Source of the DNA: Naegleria gruberi
Lineage: Eukaryota
DNA: 64,000 nucleotides
Strand: one strand, 5' to 3'
Assembly: GCA_000004985.1 (NCBI GenBank)
Contig: GG738860.1
Made by a program: the position numbers and the translations under genes. Shown here one piece after another: positions 2,324 to 40,827 of the stretch. How positions within the stretch are numbered: position 1 is the first letter of the stretch; the number at the start of each line of letters is the position of its first letter. A model generated the notes under the pieces. It was not told where the DNA came from, did not search any database, and saw nothing but the letters and a program-made list of their open reading frames with translations.

Positions 2324-4759
2324 ATGCAATCTGCTAAACCTCTCATATTATTCAAAAGCTCTGTTAATGGAGAATTAAATTCATCTGATTGTGGTGAACC
2401 TTTTCTGGTTCAAGAAACAGTCAATGAATTACTACAATTGACCGATTTACTCAACAAACCAGTCAAGGTAATTGGAGTATGTGGTCCAAAGAGGGCTGCT
2501 AAAACTTCTCTTGCCAATTATCTTGCTCAATCTGTATCATTTGAAGTTGGACATTCAATTGAGTCCAAAACAAAGGGTATTTGGTTGTTTGTAGTTGATA
2601 AACAAGATCATTCCTTAATCATTTTGGATTCTGAGGGTTTTGATGAAGCCTCAACTGCCCAAGATCAACTCTTGTTCATTATCCTGTACTTTTTGTGTTC
2701 CCTCCTTGTTTTCAATACCAGTCATGTGCCAACAAGACAAAATGTTCAAGATTTACAATTTCTAGCCGAATTTAAATCCAAGCTACTTGTATCTGAAGCT
2801 TCAACCCATAACAAATCTGTTCATCCAACCTTCTTGAATTCATTTGGTCCAAACTTTTTATGGTTGATTAGGGATAAATTCTTGAATATTCCCAACGAAT
2901 TTCAAGACATGGAAGATTTCATGTTGAGAGTAGTCCTGGCAAAATCAAATGATGGAAAGGATCATTTGAGAGAAAACATTCTCACCATCTTCAATAGAGT
3001 CTTCTTTGATTTTTTACCTGTACCTGGAGAGCCATCATTCCAGTCAAAATTGGAACATGTTACAATGAATGTTATTTTGGCTAATGTTCCATTAAAAAAA
3101 TTGGTCAATCCTGAAGATATTGGCGATAGAGAAAGTGTTACTTTGGAAACATTCCTTAAATTGGTTGAACTTGTTATTCATCAAATGACTCGAACTCTTA
3201 ACAAGATTCCAGTAATTGACAATATTTTTCATACCATCACCTCCAATAAGGAAATTTACAATTTAAAACGTGCCGTTCAAGTATACGTTGATCACATGAG
3301 CAGGGAACTTGATGATATTGACCCAGTTGACTATGACATATTCACTGAAATAGATAAGCAAGCTGTTGCTAAGGCAACCAAAACCTATTTTGAAGGAATT
3401 CCATCTTCAACTGCAGATTCGAATAGATTACTTTCTGATCTCATGCAAAAGAAGAAGAGTTTCATTGACGACCAAAATGAAAAATCCAAAACATATTGTA
3501 CCTCTCTCATCAAACAATTGTACTCGAAAATGGTTGCTCCCCAAGTAAAACAGTTAATGAATGTCAGAGGTGATATTTCCATGTTGCTTGACACTATTGA
3601 TAAATTCAAGAAGGAATACCATTCGAAAGCTAAAGGAAACATGGCAGTCTCTGTTTTGAATGGCTATTATAATCATCATATTACTAAGGATTTGAATAAT
3701 TTGAGTTCAATAAGAGAGTATGAAGAGAATGTGAAGAATATTAAGGAAGAATTTTCTCACAACTTGGTTCAGTTGAAGGAAGCTGAAAAATCTCTTGTCA
3801 CATTTGAGAACAATATTTCTCAAAATACAAACTATCAACAAATGCTAGAAATGCAAACAAAACTGCAATCTGAACTCTTTAAAGAAGTGATGATTGCTCA
3901 GAGGGAATCACAAGCTAATACTCTAGTCTCCATTGATATGCTCTCAAAGAGTATGCATGACTCTCAGAGACAAGCTCTTAGCATGTATTCTGCAATGCAA
4001 CAATCTCAGCAACAAGCACAAACTCAACAATTAGCTCTCGTTCTAGAGCATAATAGAATTGCAAGTGAGCAACTTAATCAAGCAATGGAAAAAACTACTC
4101 AAGCAGTAATTCAGTATAATGCCAATAGAGAAGATGATTCTTTTTTGGGAAAGGTTGGAAAGATTGGTTTAATAGTTGGTTTAGGTGCTTTGGCACCTGC
4201 ATTGGGTGCCATTCCACATGTTGGATCTGTCCTCTCTGCAACAGCTACAGGAATGAGTGCAGTTATGGGAAAGCAATTGCTCGGACAAGAATATGACCCA
4301 AGACTAATTCAAACCAATACTACTCCTACTCCTCCAAAGGTTAGTCATAGTCCATCAGTCAATCGAGACTCCTTATTATCTCAATTCACAACCAATGCTC
4401 TCTCACAACAAGTGCATCCACAAAATCAACAAGTAACCAACAGCCATCAACCAAGAGCTGTTGTTAGCCAGCTGCCAAGAAAGAATCCTATTGTGCAACC
4501 TCAAAAATCTTCAATCACAGAGTCCACAAAATATGAATTGGGTGGAGAGTTTAAACAAGTTGGCCTCAATGGATCTTATTCCAATACTGTTACAAAAGAT
4601 ATGTTTCCTTATGGCTGTCAATGGGGATGTGGACGTGAAAATGTTTGTTCAAAGCCAGGCCATTCATGTGGAAGACCATCATGCAATGAGGAAAGAAATA
4701 AGAAATCCTATTTCAAAGGCACACTTGGTGTAATGTCAACAACAAGAAACAAGTTGTGA
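2324..4759 (+). CDS. GBP/atlastin-like large GTPase with a C-terminal hydrophobic (TM-like) segment and a Cys-rich tail. The P-loop is non-canonical.
   Basis: 811-aa ORF with a real ATG. P-loop VCGPKRAAKTS, with Ala where the Gly of GxxxxGK[ST] is expected. GIWLFVV and ILDSEGFD motifs match GBP G2/G3 spacing. Hydrophobic block LGKVGKIGLIVGLGALAPALGAIPHVGSVLSATATGMSAVMG. C-terminus CQWGCGRENVCSKPGHSCGRPSC. Confidence 0.65.
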   Translation: MQSAKPLILFKSSVNGELNSSDCGEPFLVQETVNELLQLTDLLNKPVKVIGVCGPKRAAKTSLANYLAQSVSFEVGHSIESKTKGIWLFVVDKQDHSLIILDSEGFDEASTAQDQLLFIILYFLCSLLVFNTSHVPTRQNVQDLQFLAEFKSKLLVSEASTHNKSVHPTFLNSFGPNFLWLIRDKFLNIPNEFQDMEDFMLRVVLAKSNDGKDHLRENILTIFNRVFFDFLPVPGEPSFQSKLEHVTMNVILANVPLKKLVNPEDIGDRESVTLETFLKLVELVIHQMTRTLNKIPVIDNIFHTITSNKEIYNLKRAVQVYVDHMSRELDDIDPVDYDIFTEIDKQAVAKATKTYFEGIPSSTADSNRLLSDLMQKKKSFIDDQNEKSKTYCTSLIKQLYSKMVAPQVKQLMNVRGDISMLLDTIDKFKKEYHSKAKGNMAVSVLNGYYNHHITKDLNNLSSIREYEENVKNIKEEFSHNLVQLKEAEKSLVTFENNISQNTNYQQMLEMQTKLQSELFKEVMIAQRESQANTLVSIDMLSKSMHDSQRQALSMYSAMQQSQQQAQTQQLALVLEHNRIASEQLNQAMEKTTQAVIQYNANREDDSFLGKVGKIGLIVGLGALAPALGAIPHVGSVLSATATGMSAVMGKQLLGQEYDPRLIQTNTTPTPPKVSHSPSVNRDSLLSQFTTNALSQQVHPQNQQVTNSHQPRAVVSQLPRKNPIVQPQKSSITESTKYELGGEFKQVGLNGSYSNTVTKDMFPYGCQWGCGRENVCSKPGHSCGRPSCNEERNKKSYFKGTLGVMSTTRNKL

Positions 4760-14741: not shown

Positions 14742-17700
14742 TTAGTGAATAGTTTCATACAACTCCATTGCAGTATCAAGCAATAAAGTATCAAATAGTT
14801 GGTCAGTAATAAAGTTTTTGATCATTTCTTCTTCGAGGTTTGAGGATTTCCATTTTTCTGCAGGTTTGAGGATACCAGGAATTAAAGGAATTGAATGTTT
14901 TGGAAGGTATTCATTTTCCATGTCAGAGAGTGTATGATCAACAAATTGCTCATTCTTGGATAATTCAAAGGATTTAACAAGGCTATCAAACACAAATTGG
15001 AAAGGAGTCAATTGATGAACATTGGTGTAATTATTCTTTTTCTTTCTAATATTTTCTTCTCTTCCAAAGACGTGACCCTTAAATGCAACTCCAACGTGTT
15101 CAGATTGCATGATGGTGTTGTATTCACTCAGGTAAAAATTGAATGATTCCAAGACGAGTTGATTAAAAGCATCTTGATTAGGATTGGATGACTTTTCAAG
15201 AACTGATACGTCAACAAGATTACAGACAGATCCAACCTTGTCTAGATTCTTATCCTTAGAATTGTTGTGAATAATATTTAGAAGATTTTCTACATGTTCC
15301 CTAGTTTGAATAATTTCTCCTGATCTTGGTTTTTCTTTGAGGGAAGGTAATGGACCTAGTTTAGTATTGAAAACATGGTATTCGTCATGATCGTGAATGT
15401 GCATATCTGATAAAGTTTCTCCAGTAAAGTCTTCATCTTCGTCGTGATGATCAACTTGCTGTGGAGATTGTTGCTCGTGTAAGTGAATATCATCATCACC
15501 AATAGTATTTTCGTCTTCAATAGAATCGCTGGAAAAGTCAAAGTCATCTTGCTCCAATACTTCTTCTTCCACGTGGAACTTTTCAGTTTGAGGTGATGGT
15601 TCTGAGTCAACCTTGTTTTCGTCGAAATCTTCAAAATCAGAACTAATATCATCATCAAAATCTGATTGAGCAAGCATTTGTTGCTGTTTAGCATCTTCTT
15701 CGTCATTGAGCTTCTTTAACCTAAGTTCTTCTTGTCTTTGCTCTTCCTTTCTGAGTTCTTCTTGACGTAACTGTTCCTTTCTCAATTCTTCTTGTCTTTG
15801 TTCTTCTCTTCTGACTTCCTCCAACTCTTGTTGTTTTTGTTGTTCCTTTCTTAATTCCTCTCTTCTGAGCTCTTCTTGACGTAATTGCTCTTTTCTTAAC
15901 TCCTCTTGTCTCAGATCTTCCTTTCTTTGTTCTTCTCTTCTGATTTCGTCTTGACGAGTTAATTCCTTTTGGTTTTGTTCTTGTTGCTTCAACTCGTCTT
16001 TCAATTTGAGGATTCTGAGCTCTTCCTTTCTCAATTCTTCCTTTCTGAGCTCTTCCTTTTCGATTTCAGCTTGTTTACGTTTCTCCTGTCTAATACGTTC
16101 GTCCTCAAGCTCTTTGTTCCTTAATTGCTCCTTTCGTTTGATTTCCTCTTGTTGCTCTTGCAGCATTTCCATCTTTTTTCTAATTTCTTCTTCAGATGCT
16201 TCTTGCTTTTTGAGTGAATTCTTCAACAATTCTTCTTGCTTTTCCTTCTCCCTTCTGAGTCTTTCTTCTTCTTTTCTCAACTCTTCCTTTTTCTTTGAAT
16301 AGGTAAGTCTTTCTTCTTCAAGTCTTGCCTTTTCTTCATCGAGTTGTTGCATTTTGAGTTTTTCTTGCTCTACTCTGTCTTGTTGTCTTCTTTGGAACTC
16401 TTGCTTTTCTTGTTCTAATTGCTCCTGTTCCTCATGAAGTCTTTCGAGCTCTTCCCTAATGCTATCCTCTCTTTCAGAATCTTGTAAGAGTAACTCCCTC
16501 TTGAGCTTTTCTTGCTTCTCTTGTTCCTTCTTGAGAAGAATTTCCTTTTGTTTTACAAGCTCTTGTTCCATCTTTTTGGCAAGCTCTTCTTCCTTTCTTT
16601 TGGCAACTTCCATCTCAATGTGTTTACGAAGATTATCTTCCTGTTCCAATTGATTTCTTCTCATTTCATCCTCATGTTCTTTGGCAAGACGTTGTTGATC
16701 TTCGAGCTGCTGTTTACTTTCATTGAGCTTGTTTTCAAGTTGCTTTCTGAGAGACTTTTCTTTTTCGAGCATTTCTCTCAACCTATTCTCTTCTTGAATC
16801 TTTCTTTCAGTCTCTTCTTCGAGTTCTCTTCTCTTTCTTTCTTCATTGAGCAATTTTTGTCTAAGAACCTCTTCCTGACCCTTGAGTTTAACAAGATTTT
16901 GTTCTTCTTCTAACTTTTTTCTGAGAGCTTCTTCCATCTTTTTAGAAAGCTCCTCTTCCTTTCTTTTGGCAATGAGCTCAATTTGTTTTCTAATTATTTC
17001 TTCCTGCTCGGCCTGTCTTCTCTTTAATTCTTCTTCTTGTTCCTTCAAGAGCCTTTGTTGTTCCTCTTTATGTTTGAGAAGTTGTTGTTCCATCTTTCTG
17101 TCCATCTCTTCCTCTTTTCTTTTAGCGACTTCCATTTCGATCTGGACACGAAGCTTTTGCTCTTGGTCGAGTTGCTTTCTCTTAAGGTCATCTTCTTGCT
17201 CACGAACAATACGTTGTTGCTCTTCAAGTTGCTGCTTACTCTTGCTGAGCTTGTCTTCAAGTTGCTTACGTAAAAGTTTTTCTCTTTCAAGCATATCCTT
17301 AAGCTGAGACTCTTCTTCAAAGAACTTTTCAGTTGTTTGTTCGAGTTCCCTCCTCTTTCTCTCTTCAGATAAGAGCTTGTGTCTCAAAGCTTGCTCTTCA
17401 TTCTTGAGTTTGAGAATATTATTTTCTTCCTCCAACTTTCTCTTCAACTCTTCTTCCATATTTCTGGAGAGTTCATCGTCCTTTCTCTTAGAGACAAGTT
17501 CAAGCTGCTTACGAATAATGTCTTCTTGTTCAATATGTCTTCTTCTCATTTCCTCTTCTTGTTCTCTAGCAAGACGTTGTTGTTCTTCGAGTTGTTGTTT
17601 ACTCCTACTGAGCTTATCTTCAAGTTGCTTACGTAAAAGTTTTTCCTTCTCAAGCATGTCTTTCAATTGCTTATCCTCTTCAGATAGCTTTTCATTGGAA

Positions 17701-19559
17701 TCTTTGAGTTCGCGTCTCTTGGCCTCTTCTTCGATGAACTGAGTGATGATTGACTCTCTTTGGGCAAATTGTTGTTCAAGTCTCAACCTCATCTCTTCAT
17801 CCCTCTTTCTACGTTCATTATCGATTTCTTCTAACTTTTTTCTAATAATTTCCTCTTCTATTTGTCTCTTCATTACATAATCTTGTTCTATCTTCTTCAG
17901 AAGATTTTCCTTAATTTCATTTTCAATTTTTGCCTTGAGATCCTCTTGAGTGATTTCTTCATCAACTCTCTTCAGCTTTTTTCTCTTTACAGAATTCGAT
18001 ACAGGAGAAGTAGAAATTTCCTCAGATGATGTTTCGCTTTCATAAGAGGTTTCTGAAAGCTTTTTATCTTGAATCATGAGTTCATTCTTGACCTCCTTGA
18101 TCTTTTGCTCTATCTTCTTGGAACGAAGCAATTGTTGTATCTTGGCCTCTTGCTTCTTCTTTTTGGAACGAAGAGCTTTGAGTTCCATTTTCATATTCTC
18201 AATGTTTCTTTCTCTCTCTTCGAATTCTGTTGAAACACTCAGTGTTTCTTCAAAAGACATACTCGAAGTAGTATCCATCAAAGATTCTTCTCTAAGAAGT
18301 TGACTATTATGAATATTTTCAGCCTTTTTACCCAGCATTTCAAGAGCTTCTTCTTCTTTTTTAATTTCATTTTCCAACTTCTTTTCGAGCAAGCTAGCTC
18401 TTTTGATGTTTATCGAAAGAATACTCTCTTCTGATTGTTTGATTTTCTCAATTACATTGAGAGAATCAATTAATCGCCTTGAGATGTCTTCCTTAGACTT
18501 TTCATCAGGCTTTTTACCTTGAGGAGAAGTACCAACTTGGGCATCCATCGTTAGTTTTGGTTTTTCAACTTCTTTAAAAATTTCTCTATCAACAAAGTTT
18601 GGATGAGAAACAAAATTAGGTGAAGGCTTAGTGTAAACAATGTTTGTAGGTTGGCGTCTTAGAAGGTCATCAGTACTAGGTAATTCAAGTATCTCTGGAC
18701 TTGATGGTCTCTGTTCAGTCCAAGCTTGTTTTATGGTATTATTGTTCGATGGATGGTTTTGAATATAGGACGAGTTATGATTATCTTGGTGGGATGTCAC
18801 AATTACTTTTGACATTGGTGGAGAGGAATGGATTGGGCTGAATGGTTGTTGAGCGAAAATGGTTGGCTCTGTTTTGTACATTTCCTTTCGTATCTCTGAG
18901 TATACGTGTGGGAACATGACTTCTCGTCTGTCAATCTCGGAAGGGTATAGATTATGATCATAATATAATGGTGCAGAATATGGCCTAGTGTCCGTTTCTG
19001 ACTTGGTCTTTTTAACTTTCTTTTTCTTTGCATCTCCACTTGATTTTTCCCCTTCCTTTTTTTTAGATTTTTCTTCTTTTCGTATTGAGGAAGAAGGTGG
19101 AGTCTTAGATCTATGTTTCTTTAAAAGAGAATCCAAAGTTGTTACTATTTTTTGTTCTTGTTCGGATGTCATCTTTTTCATCTTCTTCTTTGGAGAAATA
19201 GATTTCTTCTTAGGTTTTGGCACTGTCTTGCTTACATATGCTTCTAATTTTTGAAGTGTTTGTTCTCTCTTTGTCCTTTCGGCTTCCTTTGCCTTATTAA
19301 TCTCTGCTTTTTGATTAAATATTTCCTTCTGCTTCTTTTTCATAAACTCTTTTACTTTATCCTCATCATAGGGTTTCTTTCTATCCATATAATAAGGCTT
19401 TAAATCAACCTTAGGTTCTTCCTTAGGTTTTGTTATTGGAGCTTTTTGAAGGACTGGTGGTGTTGTGGAGGAAGACTTTTTTGGTGGAGCTGAAGATGGT
19501 CTTGTTTCATAGGGTGATTTTTTGCTCGGTGTTGATGATTTACTACTCAAAGAAAACAA
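14742..19559 (-). CDS. Giant (at least 1,605 aa) coiled-coil protein, E/K/R/Q-rich, with internal tandem repeats and an acidic DFDDD/SSD segment. Possibly a cytoskeletal or centrosomal scaffold.
   Basis: Continuous minus-strand ORF. The track start is TTG, so the N-terminal exon lies upstream. The minus ORF 19595..19882 ends in tcgTAAGTG and is a candidate 5' exon. The central 390 aa consist of units of about 120 aa (…KLLRKQLEDKLSKSKQQLEEQQR…IEMEVAKRKEEE…). The C-terminal part is a non-repetitive globular domain. Confidence 0.6.
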   Translation of the reverse strand: MFSLSSKSSTPSKKSPYETRPSSAPPKKSSSTTPPVLQKAPITKPKEEPKVDLKPYYMDRKKPYDEDKVKEFMKKKQKEIFNQKAEINKAKEAERTKREQTLQKLEAYVSKTVPKPKKKSISPKKKMKKMTSEQEQKIVTTLDSLLKKHRSKTPPSSSIRKEEKSKKKEGEKSSGDAKKKKVKKTKSETDTRPYSAPLYYDHNLYPSEIDRREVMFPHVYSEIRKEMYKTEPTIFAQQPFSPIHSSPPMSKVIVTSHQDNHNSSYIQNHPSNNNTIKQAWTEQRPSSPEILELPSTDDLLRRQPTNIVYTKPSPNFVSHPNFVDREIFKEVEKPKLTMDAQVGTSPQGKKPDEKSKEDISRRLIDSLNVIEKIKQSEESILSINIKRASLLEKKLENEIKKEEEALEMLGKKAENIHNSQLLREESLMDTTSSMSFEETLSVSTEFEERERNIENMKMELKALRSKKKKQEAKIQQLLRSKKIEQKIKEVKNELMIQDKKLSETSYESETSSEEISTSPVSNSVKRKKLKRVDEEITQEDLKAKIENEIKENLLKKIEQDYVMKRQIEEEIIRKKLEEIDNERRKRDEEMRLRLEQQFAQRESIITQFIEEEAKRRELKDSNEKLSEEDKQLKDMLEKEKLLRKQLEDKLSRSKQQLEEQQRLAREQEEEMRRRHIEQEDIIRKQLELVSKRKDDELSRNMEEELKRKLEEENNILKLKNEEQALRHKLLSEERKRRELEQTTEKFFEEESQLKDMLEREKLLRKQLEDKLSKSKQQLEEQQRIVREQEDDLKRKQLDQEQKLRVQIEMEVAKRKEEEMDRKMEQQLLKHKEEQQRLLKEQEEELKRRQAEQEEIIRKQIELIAKRKEEELSKKMEEALRKKLEEEQNLVKLKGQEEVLRQKLLNEERKRRELEEETERKIQEENRLREMLEKEKSLRKQLENKLNESKQQLEDQQRLAKEHEDEMRRNQLEQEDNLRKHIEMEVAKRKEEELAKKMEQELVKQKEILLKKEQEKQEKLKRELLLQDSEREDSIREELERLHEEQEQLEQEKQEFQRRQQDRVEQEKLKMQQLDEEKARLEEERLTYSKKKEELRKEEERLRREKEKQEELLKNSLKKQEASEEEIRKKMEMLQEQQEEIKRKEQLRNKELEDERIRQEKRKQAEIEKEELRKEELRKEELRILKLKDELKQQEQNQKELTRQDEIRREEQRKEDLRQEELRKEQLRQEELRREELRKEQQKQQELEEVRREEQRQEELRKEQLRQEELRKEEQRQEELRLKKLNDEEDAKQQQMLAQSDFDDDISSDFEDFDENKVDSEPSPQTEKFHVEEEVLEQDDFDFSSDSIEDENTIGDDDIHLHEQQSPQQVDHHDEDEDFTGETLSDMHIHDHDEYHVFNTKLGPLPSLKEKPRSGEIIQTREHVENLLNIIHNNSKDKNLDKVGSVCNLVDVSVLEKSSNPNQDAFNQLVLESFNFYLSEYNTIMQSEHVGVAFKGHVFGREENIRKKKNNYTNVHQLTPFQFVFDSLVKSFELSKNEQFVDHTLSDMENEYLPKHSIPLIPGILKPAEKWKSSNLEEEMIKNFITDQLFDTLLLDTAMELYETIH
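15716..15960. repeat. Short-period (about 30 bp) degenerate tandem repeat that encodes the (EELRKEQLRQ)n part of the coiled-coil protein.
   Basis: Repeated ttcttcttgtctttg / ttcctttct blocks. The protein reads RQEELRKEQLRQEELRREELRKEQ… Boundaries are approximate. Confidence 0.45.
16500..17900. repeat. In-frame tandem repeat inside the coiled-coil gene, about 3.5 units and about 360 bp per unit.
   Basis: Near-identical DNA blocks: agttgcttacgtaaaagtttttc at about 17263 and about 17623, and a diverged copy at about 16743. The protein units are EEMRRRHIEQEDIIRKQLEL…/EEELKRRQAEQEEIIRKQIEL… Boundaries are approximate. Confidence 0.55.
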
Positions 19560-20708: not shown

Positions 20709-20812
20709 GTTGTTGGAATTTTTTTTGATTTGTGAATTGGCCAATAATTATAATCACCTCAATTTTTGTCTCGAAACGAGGATGTGCTTGCAATTTAAAT
20801 TTTAAAAAAAAA

Positions 20813-21327
20813 ATGATGTCAGCAACAGGAAATCATCATGAACAACAAAATAATGAACAACAGCAGTCGGAAAGAGCCAACCGTAAAAAGATTTTAGATG
20901 CTGTCTTGGAGTATTATTCAGAGGCTTTTTCTATAGAAAAAAGTAACGAGCAAATTAAAAACAAAATGGACCTTTGTTTACCGAAACATGTCTGTAAGCG
21001 TATTTCATTTAAATTATTGAAAACAGGAGCAAATATAAATTCCATTAGTGAGAAAGTTTTGAAAATTCCAAAAAAAGAAAAGAAAATTGAAAATCATGAA
21101 GAAGTGCTTCTTTCCCAAGCAGACTTGGATGATTTTAATAAGGAACCAACACAACATGACACTGAGGAGAAAAAAAAACAAATAATGGAGTATACTGAGC
21201 AGTATGTTCAGAAAAAGTCACAGAGTGTGCTTTCACAGATGGATAGTATTACTTTTCCCAAAAAGATTAGAGCAAGACTTGATCAAATTTCTAATATTAT
21301 TGCTAAAACCTGTATTCATCTAGAAGA
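20813..21327 (+). CDS. 5' part of a gene interrupted by the scaffold gap. Hypothetical basic/acidic protein.
   Basis: ATG at 20813 (MMSATGNHHEQQNNEQ…). The ORF is open until the N run begins at 21328. Confidence 0.4.
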
Positions 21328-22811
21328 NNNNNNNNNNNNNNNNNNNNNNNNNNNNNNNNNNNNNNNNNNNNNNNNNNNNNNNNNNNNNNNNNNNNNNNNN
21401 NNNNNNNNNNNNNNNNNNNNNNNNNNNNNNNNNNNNNNNNNNNNNNNNNNNNNNNNNNNNNNNNNNNNNNNNNNNNNNNNNNNNNNNNNNNNNNNNNNNN
21501 NNNNNNNNNNNNNNNNNNNNNNNNNNNNNNNNNNNNNNNNNNNNNNNNNNNNNNNNNNNNNNNNNNNNNNNNNNNNNNNNNNNNNNNNNNNNNNNNNNNN
21601 NNNNNNNNNNNNNNNNNNNNNNNNNNNNNNNNNNNNNNNNNNNNNNNNNNNNNNNNNNNNNNNNNNNNNNNNNNNNNNNNNNNNNNNNNNNNNNNNNNNN
21701 NNNNNNNNNNNNNNNNNNNNNNNNNNNNNNNNNNNNNNNNNNNNNNNNNNNNNNNNNNNNNNNNNNNNNNNNNNNNNNNNNNNNNNNNNNNNNNNNNNNN
21801 NNNNNNNNNNNNNNNNNNNNNNNNNNNNNNNNNNNNNNNNNNNNNNNNNNNNNNNNNNNNNNNNNNNNNNNNNNNNNNNNNNNNNNNNNNNNNNNNNNNN
21901 NNNNNNNNNNNNNNNNNNNNNNNNNNNNNNNNNNNNNNNNNNNNNNNNNNNNNNNNNNNNNNNNNNNNNNNNNNNNNNNNNNNNNNNNNNNNNNNNNNNN
22001 NNNNNNNNNNNNNNNNNNNNNNNNNNNNNNNNNNNNNNNNNNNNNNNNNNNNNNNNNNNNNNNNNNNNNNNNNNNNNNNNNNNNNNNNNNNNNNNNNNNN
22101 NNNNNNNNNNNNNNNNNNNNNNNNNNNNNNNNNNNNNNNNNNNNNNNNNNNNNNNNNNNNNNNNNNNNNNNNNNNNNNNNNNNNNNNNNNNNNNNNNNNN
22201 NNNNNNNNNNNNNNNNNNNNNNNNNNNNNNNNNNNNNNNNNNNNNNNNNNNNNNNNNNNNNNNNNNNNNNNNNNNNNNNNNNNNNNNNNNNNNNNNNNNN
22301 NNNNNNNNNNNNNNNNNNNNNNNNNNNNNNNNNNNNNNNNNNNNNNNNNNNNNNNNNNNNNNNNNNNNNNNNNNNNNNNNNNNNNNNNNNNNNNNNNNNN
22401 NNNNNNNNNNNNNNNNNNNNNNNNNNNNNNNNNNNNNNNNNNNNNNNNNNNNNNNNNNNNNNNNNNNNNNNNNNNNNNNNNNNNNNNNNNNNNNNNNNNN
22501 NNNNNNNNNNNNNNNNNNNNNNNNNNNNNNNNNNNNNNNNNNNNNNNNNNNNNNNNNNNNNNNNNNNNNNNNNNNNNNNNNNNNNNNNNNNNNNNNNNNN
22601 NNNNNNNNNNNNNNNNNNNNNNNNNNNNNNNNNNNNNNNNNNNNNNNNNNNNNNNNNNNNNNNNNNNNNNNNNNNNNNNNNNNNNNNNNNNNNNNNNNNN
22701 NNNNNNNNNNNNNNNNNNNNNNNNNNNNNNNNNNNNNNNNNNNNNNNNNNNNNNNNNNNNNNNNNNNNNNNNNNNNNNNNNNNNNNNNNNNNNNNNNNNN
22801 NNNNNNNNNNN
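21328..22811. other. Assembly gap (1,484 N).
   Basis: Uninterrupted run of n characters. Confidence 0.99.
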
Positions 22812-23584
22812 ATTTAATTAACAATATGGAAATTAAATATTTAGGATTAAAAAATGAAATTTTTATTTCAATTTTATCACCAACAATTGTGTGGTATGAT
22901 TACTTTGTTTCAAATTATTGTAAAATTTATCCATTAAAAGATTATAAATTAATTTTATTATTAATTATTAAATTATTTATTGATAATTTAAATGGATTAA
23001 AATTATTACATGAATTAAATATTTCACATATTGATTTTAACATTTTAAATTCTAACATAATATTAAATAATTGTTCTGATTTAATTAGTAAATATTTAAA
23101 AGAAAATAATTTACCAACATTTAATATGGTATTAATTGATTTTAATAGTTCAAAATTAGAAAGTCAATTATTATTTACAAATGAATACATTCCAAAAACA
23201 ACACATTATCCTCCTGATTATAAATTATATTATGATAATATAAAACCAAATATATCATTTACAAAAGCACATGATATTTATTCATTATCTATTGTAATGA
23301 TTCAATATATTAACATTTTGATTAATTGTTATGGGAATAATTGCTTTCAAATGAAATCAAATACTATTAGATATATAAATCAATCACATAGAAACAAAGA
23401 CGAACCATTCAATATTGATTTTAATATTTTAAATTTTAATATTTTAAATAGTTTTGAAAAGGAAATTTTTAATGAATTATTTGAAATGATAAGAGAAATG
23501 AATTTAAACCCTTGGAAAATTATTAATGAAAAAGATTATTGTTTACAACAATTAGAAAAATTACAAAATAATGTATTGAATTAG
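22812..23584 (+). CDS. 3' fragment encoding a degenerate protein-kinase-like (pseudokinase-like) C-terminal region. It is about 85% AT.
   Basis: LHELNISHIDFNILNSNIIL corresponds to HRDLKPxN with the catalytic loop degraded. VLIDFNSS corresponds to DFG changed to DFN. HDIYSLSIVMIQYI corresponds to DxWSxG. NPWKII corresponds to HPW. It ends with TAG at 23582-23584. Continuity with the 5' part across the gap cannot be shown. Confidence 0.45.
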
Positions 23585-24023: not shown

Positions 24024-26735
24024 ATGAAAAGAAAACCAATCACGTCATCCTCTGCCAGCAAGAAGGCGAAAACTACCAATACAGAACAGCAACCAATAAT
24101 CATTTCATCACAAGATTCGAATAATGAAGAATCGAACAATGATCAATATTATGATCCGGATACTATCTTTCTATTAGATTCCAATGGTGAGTTTGTGATA
24201 ATCCCCGATGACCAAGAACCAATTTCATCAGAAGAAACAGAAGAAACTAATTTATTAGTTTCATCATCGCAATCACCACCTTTTGATTATTCGATTTATA
24301 CTAGTATCGATCAATTTCTAATAATTCCCACACACAACTTGATAAAGGAAATTCCACACGAAATTATCGCAAATTGGATGTTCTACATGGACAAACAAAC
24401 TCTTTTCAATTTCATTAGAGTTTCTCGAGAAGTTTACAATATATTTGATGAAATTTATGCAGAGAGTGTGGAAAGATTGAGATTGGAAATTTTAAATAAC
24501 AAGAGAAAGAGTAGTGATTTGAATCGATTATTGGATTTGTTTTCGAATGAAAGTCGAGAGAGAAGTGGTGAGAAAGTTATGCTGACCTATGATGACTATT
24601 TCAGAATGAGAAGTTTTACACCGTGGCCTTTGAGTTATTTTCATGATAGGACTCGGTTTGAGAGTGTTGTGAATGAAAATGATCCTCAAATTAAAGTTAT
24701 TAATGAAAAGGCAGATGAACAGATGGCACGTCTATTAGAAATGAATAATGAACAAATGAACAAAGAAACTGCTCAATATGAAAAGGTATTGCCATATGGA
24801 GTTTTTCCAAGAAAAGACATTTACTATTTGACTTTTAATCAATTGGTAAAGAGAAAGTGTGTCAAAAATCTGAAAGAAGACTTGTACATGTATACAGATC
24901 AAGCATATAAAATTGAAAGAGTGATAACAAGTGATTTATATGCAAATGAGGAGAAGAAATATAGTGTGGATTATCATACATATGTGGATAAACACAGTCA
25001 TCCAACAACTGTATATATTGAGAGAATTGTTCGGTTTTTCAAACATCCAAATGAAATGACATTCTCTGACTTTGATAATAGATTCAAGAATAATTTTCTT
25101 AGTGAACTAGCAAGAATATTAGTATATGATTGTGTATTTGAATATAACAAATCAACCAAGACAAGAGAAAGATTTGTTGTATCTGGTGGATCACTGCTTC
25201 ACACTCTTACTGGATGTGGCTGTCAAGATATTGACATTTTTATTATCAATAATCAAGAACCCGATGAAATTGTCAATCAAGCAATCAAACAGGTTTTATT
25301 GAAATTTGAAGAAAAAACCTCAAACTTTACCTATAATATAATGGGTTCAAAAACTACTATTAATATTTGTGAAGAAAGACCTAAAATGAGTATTGCAAAT
25401 GGTTATAGAGTTGAGACCAATCAGAATATTCAGATTGTTCTTTTGAGATATGATTCCATTGAAGAGTTATTACTATTCTTTGATTTGGATTGCTGTAAAT
25501 TGGCATTTGATGGAATTAGAGTTTACACAGTATTGGAATGTTTGAGATCTTTAAAATATAAGATTAACTTTCTTCCAAAACGGACAGGAAATACAGAAAT
25601 CAACAGAGCTAGGGCTTTAAAATACGGTTTTAGAGGTTTTTTTACTTTCACACTCGATACAGATCATCCTCTCTCTCATGCCATGCATTGTGACTTTGTT
25701 GTTGAGAAGCTCAGAAAAAAGATAACAACAGAATACAAAGAGACCCGAATTGATGATATTTACAATGGTAGACGAAATCCTACGACTCAGTTCTTTGTGC
25801 AACCAAAAGATTTTAGCTTTGCAGCACCTATGAAGGAATCGTCAGATCTCGATGAATCAAATTACCTCTATCCATTGATATTGAGAAATGTGGATTATCA
25901 TTTTGTTGATTTGTGTAAATCTATTGGACTCGGTGCTGCATTGTGGAAATTGAAAAAAAACATTTCGAGAGAACGTTCTTGTTACATATTTGATTTCCTT
26001 CTCGATGGAGATACTAAAAGCAAGGCCCTATTCACTTCTGAATTGAAATTAGAAAATTCTGAAAGAAAGGGTGGTTCTGAAATGTTAGAAAAGCTAATTT
26101 CATTAGATGGCTACACATTCTTAGATAGACCTTCTGAACTTTTCAAAAACCTGCAACAAGATTATAATCTCGTCAAAAACAAGTATTCATACTCTCACCT
26201 AGTTCAGAAATATAATATTGTGAATTGTGCCAAATGTTCCAACTATATTTATTCAACACAAATTGCATCTCAATTGAGGTTAAAGAAGAGACAACATGAC
26301 TCGTCCATTGAAATTCCAAAATTTGACACAATTAACGAAAATAATTTCAATCCAGAAATTCATTTCTGTTGTGATTCCTGTTTAAGGAAGGTGAATGGCA
26401 TGATAAAGTTTAGAGCTTTTATCCAATCAACAAGTTATGGAGTTTCTGGAGCTGAAAAAGGAATTGTAACTCTGTTAGTGGAACAAGATCAGAATTCAGG
26501 AATTTCAAAGAGGAAAATCTTTATATATTTGGAAGGGGCTTATGGACTGGAAGAATTGCAAATTGCATTTTATTCCTTACTGAATTATAGGAAATATATT
26601 GAGTACATTTCAGTGGATGATGAAATTCATGTAAAATTGGCAAACACAACAATTGTTTCGTCTGACTATGAAGTTCTCTATCCTCCAAAAACTTACCCTC
26701 CAAAATTTGATTGGATGTTCAATGGATCAATGTGA
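24024..26735 (+). CDS. 903-aa protein with an N-terminal F-box-like motif, a nucleotidyltransferase-fold (GS…DxD…D) core and a C-terminal Cys-cluster.
   Basis: F-box-like: IPHEIIANWMFYMDKQTLFNFIRVSREVYNIF. NTase signature: VVSGGSLLHTLTGCGCQDIDIFII (hG[GS]-x11-DhDh), with a downstream third acidic residue in LLLFFDLDCCKLAF. Cys motif: CAKCSNYIYSTQ…HFCCDSCLRKV. Real ATG. Confidence 0.55.
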   Translation: MKRKPITSSSASKKAKTTNTEQQPIIISSQDSNNEESNNDQYYDPDTIFLLDSNGEFVIIPDDQEPISSEETEETNLLVSSSQSPPFDYSIYTSIDQFLIIPTHNLIKEIPHEIIANWMFYMDKQTLFNFIRVSREVYNIFDEIYAESVERLRLEILNNKRKSSDLNRLLDLFSNESRERSGEKVMLTYDDYFRMRSFTPWPLSYFHDRTRFESVVNENDPQIKVINEKADEQMARLLEMNNEQMNKETAQYEKVLPYGVFPRKDIYYLTFNQLVKRKCVKNLKEDLYMYTDQAYKIERVITSDLYANEEKKYSVDYHTYVDKHSHPTTVYIERIVRFFKHPNEMTFSDFDNRFKNNFLSELARILVYDCVFEYNKSTKTRERFVVSGGSLLHTLTGCGCQDIDIFIINNQEPDEIVNQAIKQVLLKFEEKTSNFTYNIMGSKTTINICEERPKMSIANGYRVETNQNIQIVLLRYDSIEELLLFFDLDCCKLAFDGIRVYTVLECLRSLKYKINFLPKRTGNTEINRARALKYGFRGFFTFTLDTDHPLSHAMHCDFVVEKLRKKITTEYKETRIDDIYNGRRNPTTQFFVQPKDFSFAAPMKESSDLDESNYLYPLILRNVDYHFVDLCKSIGLGAALWKLKKNISRERSCYIFDFLLDGDTKSKALFTSELKLENSERKGGSEMLEKLISLDGYTFLDRPSELFKNLQQDYNLVKNKYSYSHLVQKYNIVNCAKCSNYIYSTQIASQLRLKKRQHDSSIEIPKFDTINENNFNPEIHFCCDSCLRKVNGMIKFRAFIQSTSYGVSGAEKGIVTLLVEQDQNSGISKRKIFIYLEGAYGLEELQIAFYSLLNYRKYIEYISVDDEIHVKLANTTIVSSDYEVLYPPKTYPPKFDWMFNGSM

Positions 26736-26989: not shown

Positions 26990-27063
26990 TACCGACAATG
27001 GGGCTCGAACCCACGACCCCAGGATTAGAAGTCCTGTGCTCTATCCAACTGAGCTATGACGGC
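26990..27063 (-). tRNA. tRNA-Arg (anticodon UCU), 74 nt.
   Basis: The reverse complement folds as a cloverleaf: GCCGTCA-TA-GCTC-AGTTGGATA-GAGC-A-CAGGA-CTTCTAA-TCCTG-GGGTC-GTGGG-TTCGAGC-CCCAT-TGTCGGT-A. Internal A box TAGCTCAGTTGG and B box GGTTCGAGCCC. One T·T in the acceptor stem. Identical to the copy at 49598..49671. Confidence 0.85.
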
Positions 27064-27532: not shown

Positions 27533-29245
27533 ATGGTACTACATGATGCTTCCCCAACAACAACGAGTAGTGCGGTTGACCAACAAATTAAACAATACAG
27601 GTTTAAAATAGAGGCTGTTTTTGACCACAAGGAGGCGAGAGAAATATTTAGGGAATATATGAAGAAGGATTGTCTCAATGAAGGTGAGTTTACTTTTACC
27701 TTTCGAATAATAATTATTGTGTTATTGTGATGGTTTCGAATTATCACCACCAATCAAAATAATCAATTAATTTCAAACACAACTCTCAATTAAAAATTTG
27801 AATAAGAACCCTTGTTATTTTACGAAAGTGTTGAAAAATACTTGAACACCCGATTAGATAAGAATCGATTAGAATTGGCTGCTGATATCACTGAACATTT
27901 CATCACAGTTAGCCAACATGAATTAAACCTCTCCATGTCTATTCGAAATGATATCCTAACCCGATGGGAACAAATCGAAGAAAGAAACAAGAATGTCATT
28001 GATGATGATTTAATTGCCTGTCCAATTGATTTATTCAGCAGAGCTCAGGATGTAATTTTCATCGAGATGAAACAAGATAATTTTTCAAGATTTGTCGATT
28101 CTGATATTTTCAAAAAGTTTCTAATAAGAGAATTGAAGAAGAATGATCATATTTTGGAATCTTTGGGCACGTGTAAATTCAATTCAAGAACTGGCTCTTT
28201 GGGAAGTTTATCATCTGAGGATTTGATGAATAATTTGACACCAGTTTCATCTTCCATTTCATCTTCACCATTACATGCAATTTCACATTCACAACCAAAT
28301 AATTCTAGTTTTTCTGGGAATGTGAATTTAACTCCAAGAAGTTCTCAAGATAGTGAGAGTGATTCACTCGATGAGAAAATTGCAACTTTCTATGAGAAAC
28401 AAAATGATTCGAATGAAAGTTTACTCTTGCCAATTATTGATGATATGAGTCCATATATAACTCCAAAAGATTATGATTTGGGAATGAAACTTGTAAATTC
28501 ATTGAATGATTCGAATATGTGGAAAACTATTGATGAAAAAGTTGGACTCAAGACACTTGTCAGTAATCCTGTTTTTAGTTTTTCTCCAAGAAAGAGTGAA
28601 AGTGGGAAGATAATTGTCTGCAATTCTGGAATTCTCACTGGTAAACCAAGAGATTGGTTGAATTTGTTATTCTCTGATTCTATCAATAAGATGATTCATG
28701 AAAAGATGAAGAAGAGATTCCAAGTTGACTATATCAAAATTAATCCAAAGAATGGAGCTCACTACCCAAACACAATAGTATACACTGAAGCTCAATTTCC
28801 ATTTCCATTGACTAATAGAGATTTCATCTTTTGTAGAAGTGTAATTCCAGATCTTTACAATGAAACTACTGGAGAATATGACAGATATGTCTTTATTCAA
28901 AAACCAACTCAACATCACGAATATCCAGCCAGAAACTCACCAATCAGAGCACTCCACTACATTTTCTACATTGTTGAAAAGAAGACTCAATCCAGTGTTA
29001 AATATTCAGTATTCGAAACTGGAGATCTCTCCGGCAAAATTCCACCAAAGATTGTTTCAAGCTTTTTCAAGACTATTGCTAATGCCATGCACAAGAAAGT
29101 CATCAAAGCATGTGAAAAGATCTATAACGAAGAAATCGTTTCCAAAGATGCTGATGGCGCCCTATCAACCCTCACTGAAATGCTCAAATATTTGGAACAT
29201 GAAAGAGCTAACAAGTCAAACTCAACAATAGCTGAAAAACATTAA
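27533..29245 (+). CDS. RGS-domain and START (StAR-related lipid-transfer) domain fusion protein. Two exons: 27533..27683, then about 27858 (or 27873)..29245.
   Basis: Exon 1 (track ORF 27533..27730) carries the RGS N-terminus FDHKEAREIFREYMKKDCLNE, followed by GTGAGT at 27684. The intron is AT-rich, about 175-190 nt, phase 1. Exon 2 contains the RGS C-terminus (…SQHELNLSMSIRNDIL…AQDVIFIEMKQDNFSRFVDSDIFKKFL). The START part aligns closely with PCTP: TIVYTEAQFPFPLTNRDFIFCR, SPIRALHY, VFETGDLSGKIPPKIVSSFFKTIANAMHKKVIKAC. The exact acceptor was not resolved. Confidence 0.6.
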
Positions 29246-35656: not shown

Positions 35657-38440
35657 GCTCAAACGAAAAGTCAACCCAACCAATCAGACTTCCAAATTCA
35701 CAGAAGAATCAACTCACTCCCAATACATAGACTCATCAAGGAAATCAATGTACTCACATTCGAATATTCAAATAATAATAAGCAACAAACACTAGATGAA
35801 CTGAATAAGAAGAAAGATGAACTGAAATACAAACAGAAGGAATTTTTTAAGAAAGAGAGAGATAGATGGCTACATATGATTAACAATACAAGTATTGGAT
35901 TTCTATATAGATTTGATGCAGATCTGAACACCAAGAATATCAATTGGAAAAATCTACCAGACAGCGTAAACAAAGATAGCACTCTCCAATTCTTCACACA
36001 GAAATTCAAGAAAGAATATGAAGAAATCAAAATCAAACTCCCAACATCAACAGTCAAAGAAGGTCCACAAGAGATCACAATTAACAAAGATGATATTCTA
36101 AGCACACTCAAGAGACTCAAATCTAAATCTACAGGCACAGACTTTATTACAAATGACTTACTCAAGGAAATGACAGAGACACAAGCAACACAATTAGCAA
36201 TAGAATTTAATAAGATGATTAGTGAAACAAAGGATATACCAATAATAATGAAAGAAGGTTGGATCAAATTAATCCCAAAGAAAGACTCTATTGTAACACA
36301 CAAAGACATTCGTCCTATCACAATAATGAGTACACTATACAGACTACTATTTAACATCATAGCAAGGAAAATAGGTAAATGGGCAAAAGATAACATCAAT
36401 ATTAGACAACAAGCATTCACATCTAACAGAGAAGTTAACAACCATATTCTAGTAATCCAAGCATTAAGAGTCAAATACAAGAAAACAAATGCATTTGTAA
36501 TCACCAACTTGGACATAGAAAATGCATATGACGGTGTAGAACATTGTGTCCTTAGATTAGCTATGAAACATTGTAAATTCCCACTAATGTATAACACAAT
36601 CACCCAAATTATAATAGATTACCAAATCGAGAATTGGAAAATACCTGGCACACCATCATTTAAAATTGAAGAAATAGGAACTCTTAATTTTGCTGATGAC
36701 TGCTCATTAGTAACACAACCCAACAAGAAACACAATACCAAACTCAAACAACTGAACAAATGGATAGGGAATCTCAAAATGAAAATCAATGCTTCTAAAT
36801 CAATAACTTCTGTCACACCGGAAAGAATAGCCCTTAAAGACTTCACAGTTAAGCTTGACGATACGTTAATACCAAGACAAACCAATCAAAGAACATTAGG
36901 AAACTACATCACAGAAGACCATCTCTTCACAAAAGAAATTGACAAAAGAGAAGCTAGAGTAACACAAATACTAAAAATACTTCCAATCCATTTGATAGAA
37001 CCAGAAAATCTCAAAAGAATCATAATGGGCAAGACAATTAGTAGTTTTATCCATCTAGCAAGAGGAAATTCAATTTCCAATCCTCGCCTACAAACAATTG
37101 ACTCAACAATTAGGGGTAACCTAAAAAGATCACTGAAGATCGATGCAAAGGTAAAACCATCCACAATGTATGCACAATTCGAAAGAAAAGGACTAGAAAT
37201 TCCAAACCTCGAATACATAGCCAACTCAATCCTTTGCAATAACTTAATCAACAAATTCCACTCAAGTAACCCACTTGTCAGAGAAGCAGTACAGTACGGA
37301 ATTAATAACTGTAACACGAACAAAACAAAACTACACAACATATTTGAAAAATTCCACTACATCCTAAAACAACAACACAAACTTACCACAACAATATGTA
37401 ACACCAATCATCAACTTCTGGAAAAGGAAAAAGATGAACAATACTCCTACTCAGAATTCACAATATGGACTGATGGATCCAAATCAGAAAACAAAGTAGG
37501 ATTCAGTATAATCATTCAGAACAACGAATTTACAAAAGGATACAAATACAAGCTCCACTCATACCACTCAAACAACATGGCTGAATTATCAGCAATTACA
37601 ACAGCACTACACATCATACCACCAAACAGCAATGCAAAGGTACTCACTGACAGTGAAATAGCAGTCAAAATAATTAACAACACAAATTACAAAGGTCAAT
37701 TTAAGCAAATCAAAGATGAAATTACCAACCTCATCAGCACTAAAAAACTTCAAGCATCCATCGAATGGACAAAAGCTCATACAGGAATAACAGATGGAAA
37801 TAACTACGCTGATAAGAAAGCCAAACAAGCCTCAAGAATAGGACATCGAATTGCACCCCAACATCTACTAACTCAAGGGCAATTAATTATCACCAATTCG
37901 AAAAAAGTTTGGAAAAGTAGAATCAAAGGAGTACTTAGTGAAAAGCTCTACAATCAAGGAACATCCGAACTCATCAACAGAACAAATCTCAATTACCTCA
38001 AAGAACATACCACCCCAGCTCACAAATACTCAATCTGGAGGCTCATGATAAATGGACACTTAAGAAGCCTCATAGTAGACAACCCACAATGCCCAACATG
38101 TAACAAAAACCTTGACACAGAACACCTCTTCATAGCATGCCCAGAAATGAATTCAGCTAGAAACTGGATGATTGAAGAAATCAAAAAAAATACCAATCTC
38201 GAACCAGTACTAAGCACAGAGAGGACAGAAATATTAACACCAAACTCATTCCAACTAAATATCTTTGATATTCTGACGGAACCTATTCAAGGTATTATCA
38301 AAGAACAATGGCCCAAGATACAAGGAGGCCTCTCACTTTTTGGAGGAAGAGTACAAAAACAATACAACAAAATCTTAAAAATTCAATAAGACGTTCCAAA
38401 TGGACGAACCCGTCGGGTTCATTCGATTAATAAACGTTTA
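35657..38440 (+). mobile_element. 5'-truncated non-LTR (LINE-like) retrotransposon carrying an RT-RNaseH-CCHC ORF and a 3' hairpin.
   Basis: The reading frame is open from 35657 to the stop at 38387-38389. RT motif FADDCSLV. RNase H motifs TDGSKSENKVGFSII…AELSAITTAL…HTGI. Zinc knuckle CPTCNKNLDTEHLFIACP. The 3' UTR hairpin gaacccgtcgggttc is followed by aataaacg. There is no endonuclease domain and no ORF1. Boundaries are approximate. Confidence 0.7.
35876..38389 (+). CDS. Reverse transcriptase / RNase H / zinc-knuckle polyprotein of the truncated non-LTR element.
   Basis: Track ORF of 837 aa. Motifs as listed for the mobile element. Confidence 0.7.
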   Translation: MINNTSIGFLYRFDADLNTKNINWKNLPDSVNKDSTLQFFTQKFKKEYEEIKIKLPTSTVKEGPQEITINKDDILSTLKRLKSKSTGTDFITNDLLKEMTETQATQLAIEFNKMISETKDIPIIMKEGWIKLIPKKDSIVTHKDIRPITIMSTLYRLLFNIIARKIGKWAKDNINIRQQAFTSNREVNNHILVIQALRVKYKKTNAFVITNLDIENAYDGVEHCVLRLAMKHCKFPLMYNTITQIIIDYQIENWKIPGTPSFKIEEIGTLNFADDCSLVTQPNKKHNTKLKQLNKWIGNLKMKINASKSITSVTPERIALKDFTVKLDDTLIPRQTNQRTLGNYITEDHLFTKEIDKREARVTQILKILPIHLIEPENLKRIIMGKTISSFIHLARGNSISNPRLQTIDSTIRGNLKRSLKIDAKVKPSTMYAQFERKGLEIPNLEYIANSILCNNLINKFHSSNPLVREAVQYGINNCNTNKTKLHNIFEKFHYILKQQHKLTTTICNTNHQLLEKEKDEQYSYSEFTIWTDGSKSENKVGFSIIIQNNEFTKGYKYKLHSYHSNNMAELSAITTALHIIPPNSNAKVLTDSEIAVKIINNTNYKGQFKQIKDEITNLISTKKLQASIEWTKAHTGITDGNNYADKKAKQASRIGHRIAPQHLLTQGQLIITNSKKVWKSRIKGVLSEKLYNQGTSELINRTNLNYLKEHTTPAHKYSIWRLMINGHLRSLIVDNPQCPTCNKNLDTEHLFIACPEMNSARNWMIEEIKKNTNLEPVLSTERTEILTPNSFQLNIFDILTEPIQGIIKEQWPKIQGGLSLFGGRVQKQYNKILKIQ

Positions 38441-39516: not shown

Positions 39517-39589
39517 GGGGATGTAGCTCACATGGTAGAGCGCTTCTTTAGCATGGAAGAGGTACGGGGATCGATACCCCGCATCTCCA
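39517..39589 (+). tRNA. tRNA-Ala (anticodon AGC), 73 nt.
   Basis: GGGGATG-TA-GCTC-ACATGGT-AGAGC-G-CTTCT-TTAGCAT-GGAAG-AGGTA-CGGGG-ATCGATA-CCCCG-CATCTCC-A. G3·U70 in the acceptor stem. Confidence 0.85.
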
Positions 39590-39594
39590 CTATC

Positions 39595-40754: not shown

Positions 40755-40827
40755 GCTGGCGTAGCTCAGTCGGTAGAGCGTTGGTCTAATAAGCCATTGG
40801 TCGCCGGTTCGATCCCGTCCGTCAGCA
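40755..40827 (+). tRNA. tRNA-Ile (anticodon AAU), 73 nt, with one mismatch each in the anticodon and T stems.
   Basis: GCTGGCG-TA-GCTC-AGTCGGT-AGAGC-G-TTGGT-CTAATAA-GCCAT-TGGTC-GCCGG-TTCGATC-CCGTC-CGTCAGC-A. The D arm and anticodon loop match eukaryotic tRNA-Ile(AAU). Confidence 0.7.

Follow-up and report, generated by a model that had tools for sequence, protein, structure and literature searches.

A predicted nucleotidyltransferase domain of the phage Gad2 family joined to an F-box in the heterolobosean Naegleria gruberi

We analysed a stretch of 64,000 nucleotides of the Naegleria gruberi genome (assembly GCA_000004985.1, contig GG738860.1), referred to throughout as the window, in order to characterise an intron-less open reading frame (ORF) whose 903 amino acids (aa) combine an F-box-like N-terminus, a candidate nucleotidyltransferase (NTase) domain and a C-terminal cluster of cysteines. 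At the local base composition a stop codon is expected about every 12 codons, giving a probability of approximately 3e-34 for 903 open codons arising by chance. The ORF shows 100 % identity to the first 902 aa of the NCBI/UniProt model P0001 (1374 aa, 'predicted protein') and is colinear with its paralogues and orthologues in an alignment of six Naegleria sequences. Conservation of the N-terminal 'MKR' in paralogues and distant relatives supports the start codon at 24024, and in silico the ORF is a single uninterrupted gene; exact-sequence look-ups for transcript or contig evidence returned no record for this protein or for P0002. A preliminary description of this DNA, made from the letters alone, had proposed the F-box, NTase and cysteine elements. 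All of the strings that it quoted were located within the ORF and the positions of these motifs agree with its placing of the core at about 25179-25500; its mention of amoebozoa as the source does not hold, N. gruberi being a member of the Heterolobosea. The gene and the regions of its product are as follows.

24024..26735, plus strand: F-box/Gad2-like NTase ORF, intron-less, 903 aa, ATG at 24024 and TGA at 26733-26735
24024..24329, plus strand: residues 1-102, low-complexity, predicted disordered tail, not conserved, with a predicted local distance difference test score (pLDDT) mostly <50
24351..24548, plus strand: residues 110-175, predicted F-box (helices 112-120, 124-131 and 135-145) and conserved linker helix/motif
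24351-24437, plus strand: residues 110-138, IPHEII...REVY, the F-box-like helix quoted in the preliminary description
24549..25019, plus strand: residues 176-332, central stretch peculiar to the Naegleria subfamily, folded at 176-250 and disordered at 305-333
25056..25658, plus strand: residues 345-545, predicted Gad2-family, class-II-like NTase domain
25176..25247, plus strand: residues 385-408, motif A, VVSGGSLLHTLTGCGCQDIDIFII, with the GG turn and the predicted metal-binding D402 and D404; quoted in the preliminary description as the NTase signature VVSGGS...DIDIFII
25425..25451, plus strand: residues 468-476, strand NIQIVLLRY with the near-invariant Q470
25476..25496, plus strand: residues 485-491, FFDLDCC, variant form of the class II NTase motif B (RRD); quoted as a later acidic motif
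25611..25640, plus strand: residues 530-539, RALKYGFRGF, conserved basic motif and putative nucleotide contact
25692..25949, plus strand: residues 557-642, helical region following the NTase domain (helices 557-573, 576-580 and 625-642 in the full-length model)
26184..26393, plus strand: residues 721-790, Cys4 cluster C735-x2-C738 ... C783-x2-C786, which holds the two quoted cysteine pairs CAKCSNYIY (residues 735-743, plus strand) and HFCCDSCLRKV (residues 780-790, plus strand)
26421..26612, plus strand: residues 800-863, C-terminal extension, helical and confined to the three N. gruberi paralogues

The pattern on which the NTase was first proposed carries little weight by itself. A loose Pol-beta pattern, G[GS]x9-13Dx[DE], arises in 12 % of shuffles of the protein, and the strict pattern, tried as stand-alone evidence, has no match as S387 takes the place of a hydrophobic residue. 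The bare pattern is thus weak evidence alone, becoming meaningful through conservation and fold, and the NTase interpretation was therefore tested by other means. The 903-aa protein itself had no significant match in searches of Pfam, NCBIfam and PDB sequences. An AlphaFold2 model of residues 330-625, built on a 50-sequence alignment, reached a predicted template modelling score (pTM) of 0.76 with pLDDT >90 over most of the domain, and shows the alpha/beta fold of the Pol-beta superfamily, in which a mixed sheet is combined with a helix-turn that bears hG[GS]. In structural comparisons this core model scored 12.3 against E. coli poly(A) polymerase I (3aql, 173 residues aligned), 11.6 and 11.5 against the CCA/A-adding tRNA nucleotidyltransferases 3wfo and 3h37 (T. 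maritima), 9.8, 9.0 and 8.9 against the Arabidopsis, Bacillus and human CCA enzymes, 9.3 against TENT5B and 5.1-6.4 against DncV, CdnE, cGLR and OAS2. TENT5 and A-adding enzymes rank first in a Foldseek search with the full-length model. The family profile found its best match among PDB sequences in motif A of human TRNT1 (E 0.012), to which AGGsv..L.....DiDiF of the profile was aligned, and the sub-threshold Pfam matches of 50 relatives fall almost only within the NTase clan (NTP_transf_2 six times, then DUF2204, Polbeta, AbiEii, NTP_transf_6 and PolyA_pol). PolyA_pol (PF01743) was matched by one of the 50, below threshold (E 0.11), and by the 903-aa protein not at all even at E up to 10. Model, TRNT1 match and NTase-clan matches together confirm the Pol-beta NTase fold, and as modelled it lies closest to the class II RNA nucleotidyltransferases rather than to cGAS, OAS or Mab-21. 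The Pol-beta signature with a conserved GG...DxD put forward in the preliminary description is therefore upheld, and of the two activities suggested there the terminal transferase lies nearer, since the closest folds are those of CCA-adding enzymes, poly(A) polymerase and TENT5; the signalling synthase is poorly supported.

Conservation is concentrated on the predicted active site. Across an alignment of 50 diverse relatives, which extends to identities of about 21 %, G388, G389, D402, D404, F406 and R530 do not vary, and at least 90 % conservation is seen at Q470, F486, D487, D489, C491, N515, K533, Y534 and R537. A further 80 sequences gave the same picture. In the six Naegleria sequences G388, G389, S390, D402, D404, D487, D489 and the four cysteines of the C-terminal cluster are invariant. 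D402-I-D404-I lies on strand 403-408 of the core model and its DxD aligns with that of TRNT1, E. coli Cca and PcnB, placing both motif-A carboxylates. All three acidic catalytic positions had been described as intact; two of them, D402 and D404, are, while the acids of FDLD (486-489), taken there for the third, align elsewhere. The alignment program hhalign pairs SIEELLLFFDLDCC with TLEDDLKRRDLTINA in Cca and with SIEEDAQRRDFTINS in PcnB, that is with motif B (RRD), and FDLD is therefore not supported as the third catalytic carboxylate. Asp487 and Asp489 within it are invariant in a 30-member subfamily, and phage Gad2 carries FDFT at this position.

Strands 437-450, the expected site of the third carboxylate, hold no conserved acid, and the protein thus appears to lack the canonical third carboxylate, with Q470 and FDLD as the candidates for its place. 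In each of three alignments (50, 30 and 80 sequences) conservation of Q470 is at least 90 %, and this residue has a counterpart in LQIQLI of Gad2. An equivalence in sequence between the IQIVLLR strand and the 'EVTTFR' strand of CCA enzymes was also considered and received no support from hhalign; only the reported spatial proximity remains. RALKYGFRGF was aligned to the R..R..RF helix of Cca and PcnB and may contact the nucleotide, and no EDxxR-like conserved motif is present in the family consensus of the 50- and 80-sequence alignments. The same combination has been described in a BTB-fused homologue from Pandoravirus ('cluster 7', e.g. A0A2U7UAG2), which retains motif A and lacks the third carboxylate, a highly conserved glutamine equivalent to Q470 being placed near the position of the latter, with RRD replaced by an acidic 'DFD', EDxxR not recognisable and two conserved arginines, matching the basic motif, found downstream (10.1101/2023.12.02.569716).

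The domain belongs to a family catalogued under the name of a phage protein. A precomputed match to PF26128.2, 'Gad2', is listed for P0001, which contains the protein studied here, and for 11 of 11 homologues found. Gad2 is the Gabija anti-defence protein 2 of Bacillus phage SPbetaL7, a protein of 400 aa (10.1101/2023.05.01.538930). A tblastn search with the core found no match among 50,697 phage genomes, and establishing the link to Gad2 therefore needed a profile: hhalign of the 50-sequence profile against an experimentally verified Gad2 homologue, a Brevibacillus laterosporus prophage sequence taken from Supplementary Table 10 of 10.1101/2023.05.01.538930, returned a probability of 96 % and E 3.6e-9 over 140 columns covering all of the conserved motifs. 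The two share the series AGG...DxD, IQ strand, FD-x-[DT], N and R..KY..G[FY], and by this profile evidence the Naegleria NTase domain is homologous to phage Gad2. Gad2 differs in being a stand-alone phage protein with an unrelated C-terminal half, lacking F-box, zinc site and short-chain dehydrogenase (SDR), and in carrying threonine in place of the second aspartate of FDLD; its only known role, blocking of bacterial Gabija, has no counterpart in a eukaryote.

Homologues at 43-44 % identity comprise two paralogues in N. gruberi, orthologues in N. fowleri and N. lovaniensis and one protein on a metagenomic contig. An exhaustive search of 1.84 billion representatives with a profile of the core (residues 330-625) identified 1,793 proteins at E up to 0.001, 114 of them at E up to 1e-10, which have in common the stretch from GG...DxD to 'KY..RGF'. 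These approximately 1,800 cluster representatives come from protists, fungi, giant viruses and phages, and fusion to BTB, F-box or SDR domains is frequent among them. Named members include the amoebozoans Planoprotostelium and Protostelium, the agaric fungus Gymnopilus dilepis and the dinoflagellate Durusdinium trenchii, and the presence of the domain in a dinoflagellate and a mushroom shows that its distribution reaches well beyond amoebae and their viruses. The Durusdinium protein (P0132, 2017 aa) takes its name, 'Uncharacterized protein R883', from a mimivirus protein; in the Gymnopilus protein (P0084, 1442 aa) the NTase domain is fused to WD40 repeats. Matches in the viral structure library BFVD come mostly from giant viruses (Pandoravirus, Pithovirus, klosneuviruses and Bodo saltans virus). 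The annotations of these viral proteins are ankyrin, BTB or VWFA protein, or 'tRNA nucleotidyltransferase/poly(A) polymerase', and Pandoravirus BTB proteins are among the best matches.

The N-terminal partner of the NTase domain is an F-box at the level of the family. The full-length model (pTM 0.71) has the short helices expected of an F-box at residues 112-157, with pLDDT of about 90, and after them the linker motif ES.ERLRL..LN....RLL.LF. Orthologous segments exceed the Pfam F-box cut-off of 20.5 bits in P0010 (23.5 bits) and in P0009 of Acrasis kona (21.1 bits) and fall below it in P0005 (17.9 bits) and P0003 (17.2 bits), and several relatives, paralogues included, are labelled 'F-box domain-containing protein' in UniProt. 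When a profile of the segment from 21 relatives was compared with PDB sequences, the 12 best matches included AnkB (Legionella), FBXO31, FBXW7, Skp2 (twice) and TIR1, all six in register on the LPxE...C core. No F-box structures surfaced in Foldseek with the full-length model, where NTase matches filled the list. The F-box named in the preliminary description is accordingly borne out for the family, by Pfam, the PDB profile and the three-helix model, and not for the N. gruberi protein taken singly, which lies below the Pfam threshold; binding to Skp1 is a prediction. Distant relatives pass almost directly from F-box to NTase domain, and the intervening residues 176-332 of the N. gruberi protein have invariant positions only among the six Naegleria sequences.

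Beyond the NTase domain a D608-x-D610...LYP motif has D608, D610, S612, L615, Y616 and P617 invariant in Naegleria, with Y616 invariant in 30 subfamily sequences. The C-terminal cysteine cluster of the preliminary description is confirmed by conservation: the four cysteines invariant in Naegleria include C735, C738 and C786, which are at least 90 % conserved in the 30 subfamily members, and the cluster is preceded by a 'Y.D.HL..KY.I' motif conserved throughout the subfamily. One CxxC is modelled at a beta-hairpin (strands 732-734 and 741-743), the other at the N-terminus of helix 784-802, and a variable insert separates the two pairs. This arrangement suggests a treble-clef-like zinc site; Pfam gave no significant match for the cluster (TRASH, E 0.74). 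The helices of the C-terminal extension (809-863) are modelled with pLDDT of 50-66 and occupy the position at which related proteins carry an SDR domain.

In the closest wider relatives the domains run F-box, NTase, Cys cluster, SDR; among them are the heterolobosean proteins of N. fowleri (FDP41_009726), Willaertia magna (ABK040_008360) and Acrasis kona (AKO1_005796). These share with the N. gruberi protein the F-box, the linker motif RL.YLN, the NTase core and the Cys cluster, matching the core profile at E 1e-75 down to 1e-31, and unlike it end in a short-chain dehydrogenase. The C-terminal adh_short domain, carried by these relatives and by many metagenomic sequences, was found in P0013/P0155, P0015 and P0017; it had no match in the 903-aa protein or its five closest relatives. 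Judged by these comparisons, the subfamily of the N. gruberi protein has lost the SDR domain and gained an insert of 150 residues between F-box and NTase. A eukaryote-like metagenomic contig (L001) carries the Gad2-like P0007 (1647-3152) and an overlapping adh_short call (3118-3912), probably a single NTase-SDR gene split by the gene caller, and a fragment of a ubiquitin-conjugating enzyme (UQ_con, 4168-4407) adjoins this region, which may be coincidence.

Among 80 more distant representatives, BTB_2 was found in 24/80, SDR in 5/80 and BTB_3, F-box and helicase domains in 1/80 each. Joining of a Gad2-like NTase to predicted adaptors of cullin-RING ligases, either F-box (Cul1) or BTB (Cul3), is a recurring theme in these sequences. 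The Pandoravirus proteins share it with a BTB (Cul3-type) adaptor in place of the F-box (Cul1-type); they further differ in being viral and not cellular, in having a different C-terminal domain and in having no conserved Cys4 site reported, and the role proposed for them in viral tRNA maturation would not carry over to Naegleria (10.1101/2023.12.02.569716). The literature searched holds no characterised F-box-nucleotidyltransferase, and the searches made for the eukaryotic PF26128/'Gad2-like' family found nothing beyond the Pandoravirus preprint, later Gad2 papers adding no mechanism. Neither the heterolobosean architecture of F-box, Gad2-like NTase and zinc site nor the link of eukaryotic and giant-virus proteins to Gad2 is described in that literature. 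The preliminary description had not recognised the architecture: the fusion is real and conserved, yet it is less novel than was thought there, as PF26128 is catalogued in Pfam, F-box labels exist in UniProt and BTB-NTase proteins are known in Pandoravirus.

Other known enzymes offer partial parallels. The class II CCA-adding enzymes and poly(A) polymerase I share motif A and an order of helices and strands that is colinear through the R..R..RF helix, whereas identity to the N. gruberi protein is only 12-19 % and FDLD stands in place of RRD. TENT5/FAM46 non-canonical poly(A) polymerases, which retain the canonical catalytic triad, are likewise eukaryotic NTases that work through protein partners, but have no detectable sequence relationship to the N. 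gruberi protein and no F-box. F-box enzymes such as the FBH1 helicase and the KDM2A/B demethylases combine an F-box with a catalytic domain, the enzyme being a subunit of, or controlled by, the Skp1-Cul1-F-box (SCF) ubiquitin ligase; their catalytic domains are unrelated to that of the N. gruberi protein.

The reading that we favour, with moderate confidence, is that the protein is an active nucleotidyltransferase docked on an SCF ubiquitin ligase. The F-box would dock it on Skp1-Cul1-Rbx1, and the NTase domain, in which GG and DxD are invariant across the whole family, is for that reason proposed to be catalytically active despite lacking the third carboxylate. The nucleoside triphosphate-Mg2+ complex would be bound through G388/G389 and D402/D404, with Q470 standing in for the usual third carboxylate and D487/D489, R530, K533 and R537 lining the nucleotide pocket, and a nucleoside monophosphate would be transferred to a hydroxyl group of the target. 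The acceptor is most likely an RNA 3'-OH, favoured because all of the close structural relatives (CCA-adding enzymes, poly(A) polymerase I and TENT5) tail RNA, although this is the least certain step; the putative zinc site could help to hold nucleic acid. Docking and activity together would mean that the enzyme works at, or is controlled by, the SCF ligase, either marking or recognising its substrates or itself being turned over via the F-box.

A number of observations weigh against this reading. The F-box of the N. gruberi protein is not matched by Pfam (PF00646 / PF12937) at any threshold, and the six F-box matches in PDB are individually marginal (E 0.05-1.6). The third carboxylate, motif B (RRD) and EDxxR of class II enzymes are all not present, such that the chemistry or substrate may differ from RNA tailing. 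Alignment by hhalign to the single Cca and PcnB sequences is statistically weak (probabilities 4-5 %), and the active-site geometry described above is drawn from such alignments and from the Pandoravirus preprint. The body and tail domains with which class II CCA-adding enzymes and poly(A) polymerase I bind tRNA are absent from the N. gruberi protein, and the short-chain dehydrogenase of close relatives hints at a small-molecule substrate. No biochemical activity is known for any member of the family, and Gad2 is a nucleotidyltransferase by AlphaFold2 prediction (10.1101/2023.05.01.538930).

Instead of an enzyme, the NTase-like domain could be a catalytically dead module for binding, in which case the protein would act as an SCF substrate receptor that recognises a nucleotide, RNA or protein for ubiquitination. 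Such a receptor would fit the F-box and BTB partners, which are typical of substrate receptors, as well as the missing third carboxylate, replaced RRD and absent EDxxR. We consider it unlikely: dead enzymes usually lose the GG and motif-A residues, whereas GG and both motif-A aspartates are invariant in approximately 50-80 very divergent sequences, some at as little as 20 % identity and phage Gad2 among them. The original authors of Gad2 predicted an enzyme (10.1101/2023.05.01.538930). Furthermore, class II CCA enzymes are reported, where Hou et al. 2005 is cited in 10.1101/2023.12.02.569716, to work with and need only the two carboxylates of motif A.

Alternatively the nucleotide might be placed on a small molecule or a protein, as by aminoglycoside and lincosamide nucleotidyltransferases or AMPylating toxins, ancestrally together with an SDR that the N. 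gruberi protein has since lost. The SDR-bearing relatives and the lack of tRNA-binding domains keep this alternative alive, the closest wider relatives having a C-terminal adh_short and the RNA-binding body and tail domains and base-templating motif being absent. It nevertheless appears doubtful, as the best structural matches are by a wide margin RNA 3'-end transferases, the subfamily without SDR has kept its active site intact and most of the distant members, BTB fusions, have no SDR. A broader and improbable proposal is that Gad2-family NTases constitute a conflict or immunity module common to phages, giant viruses and protists, whose chemistry in eukaryotes and their giant viruses would be hard-wired to cullin-RING ligases by way of F-box or BTB modules, so that nucleotidylation of protein, nucleic acid or the ubiquitin machinery would create or block ubiquitination, a coupling not previously described.

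An SCF-regulated cGAS/OAS/Mab-21-like synthase of a cyclic or 2'-5'-linked signalling nucleotide, as suggested in the preliminary description, would share the superfamily fold and conserved DxD and could be in keeping with the action of phage Gad2 in immune conflict, where nucleotide signals are common; it is very improbable: the top 50 Foldseek matches contain no protein of cGAS or OAS type, Pfam searches of the protein and its relatives gave no match to Mab-21, OAS1_C or CD-NTase, and the secondary structure of the core model has no second, acceptor-nucleotide lobe. It is hardly credible that the ORF forms the N-terminal portion of a 1374-aa F-box-NTase-RGS-START fusion spliced over an intron of approximately 1.1 kb, as in the existing NCBI/UniProt model P0001, for the 903-aa ORF has its own in-frame stop, the N. 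gruberi paralogues (911 and 889 aa) stop at the same place without an RGS domain, the proposed intron holds an opposite-strand tRNA-Arg(TCT) gene and an alternative first exon with a 123-nt GT..AG intron completes the RGS domain downstream.

With the revised exon the Pfam RGS match becomes full-length, covering profile positions 3-117 at 60.0 bits, against 34-117 at 37.5 bits before. On these sequence comparisons the NCBI fusion of 1374 aa is an artefact, and the public N. gruberi gene model P0001 is in need of correction by splitting it into two genes. The revised gene and the tRNA genes of the window are:

26990-27063, minus strand: tRNA-Arg(TCT), between the F-box/NTase and RGS genes
27533-29245: revised RGS/START gene, 529 aa, with exon 1 at 27533-27683, GTGAGT...AG intron at 27684-27806 (123 nt) and exon 2 at 27807-29245
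39517-39590, plus strand: tRNA-Ala(AGC)
40755-40827, plus strand: tRNA-Ile(AAT)
49598-49671, plus strand: second tRNA-Arg(TCT)

Upstream, an assembly gap of about 1.5 kb (a run of N at about 21316-22824) breaks the ORF 20732-23584, the part of which following the gap has a weak Pkinase match below cut-off (E 0.0067). The ORF at 14742-19559 on the minus strand encodes a repetitive, coiled-coil-like protein of 1605 aa that is very rich in Glu, Lys and Arg and accounts for the strong strand asymmetry at 16-18 kb (AT skew -0.48, GC skew -0.28). A further strong skew at 36001-38000 (AT +0.36, GC -0.22) probably reflects another compositionally biased gene. No tandem repeats scoring at least 150 are present in the window.

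These analyses link phage Gad2 to a large unstudied family of eukaryotic and giant-virus proteins. The repeated fusion of its members to ubiquitin-ligase adaptors points to a regulatory tie between nucleotidyl transfer and cullin-RING ligases. Naegleria provides a cellular member of the family, and the chemistry, once solved in either the phage or Naegleria, would inform the other.

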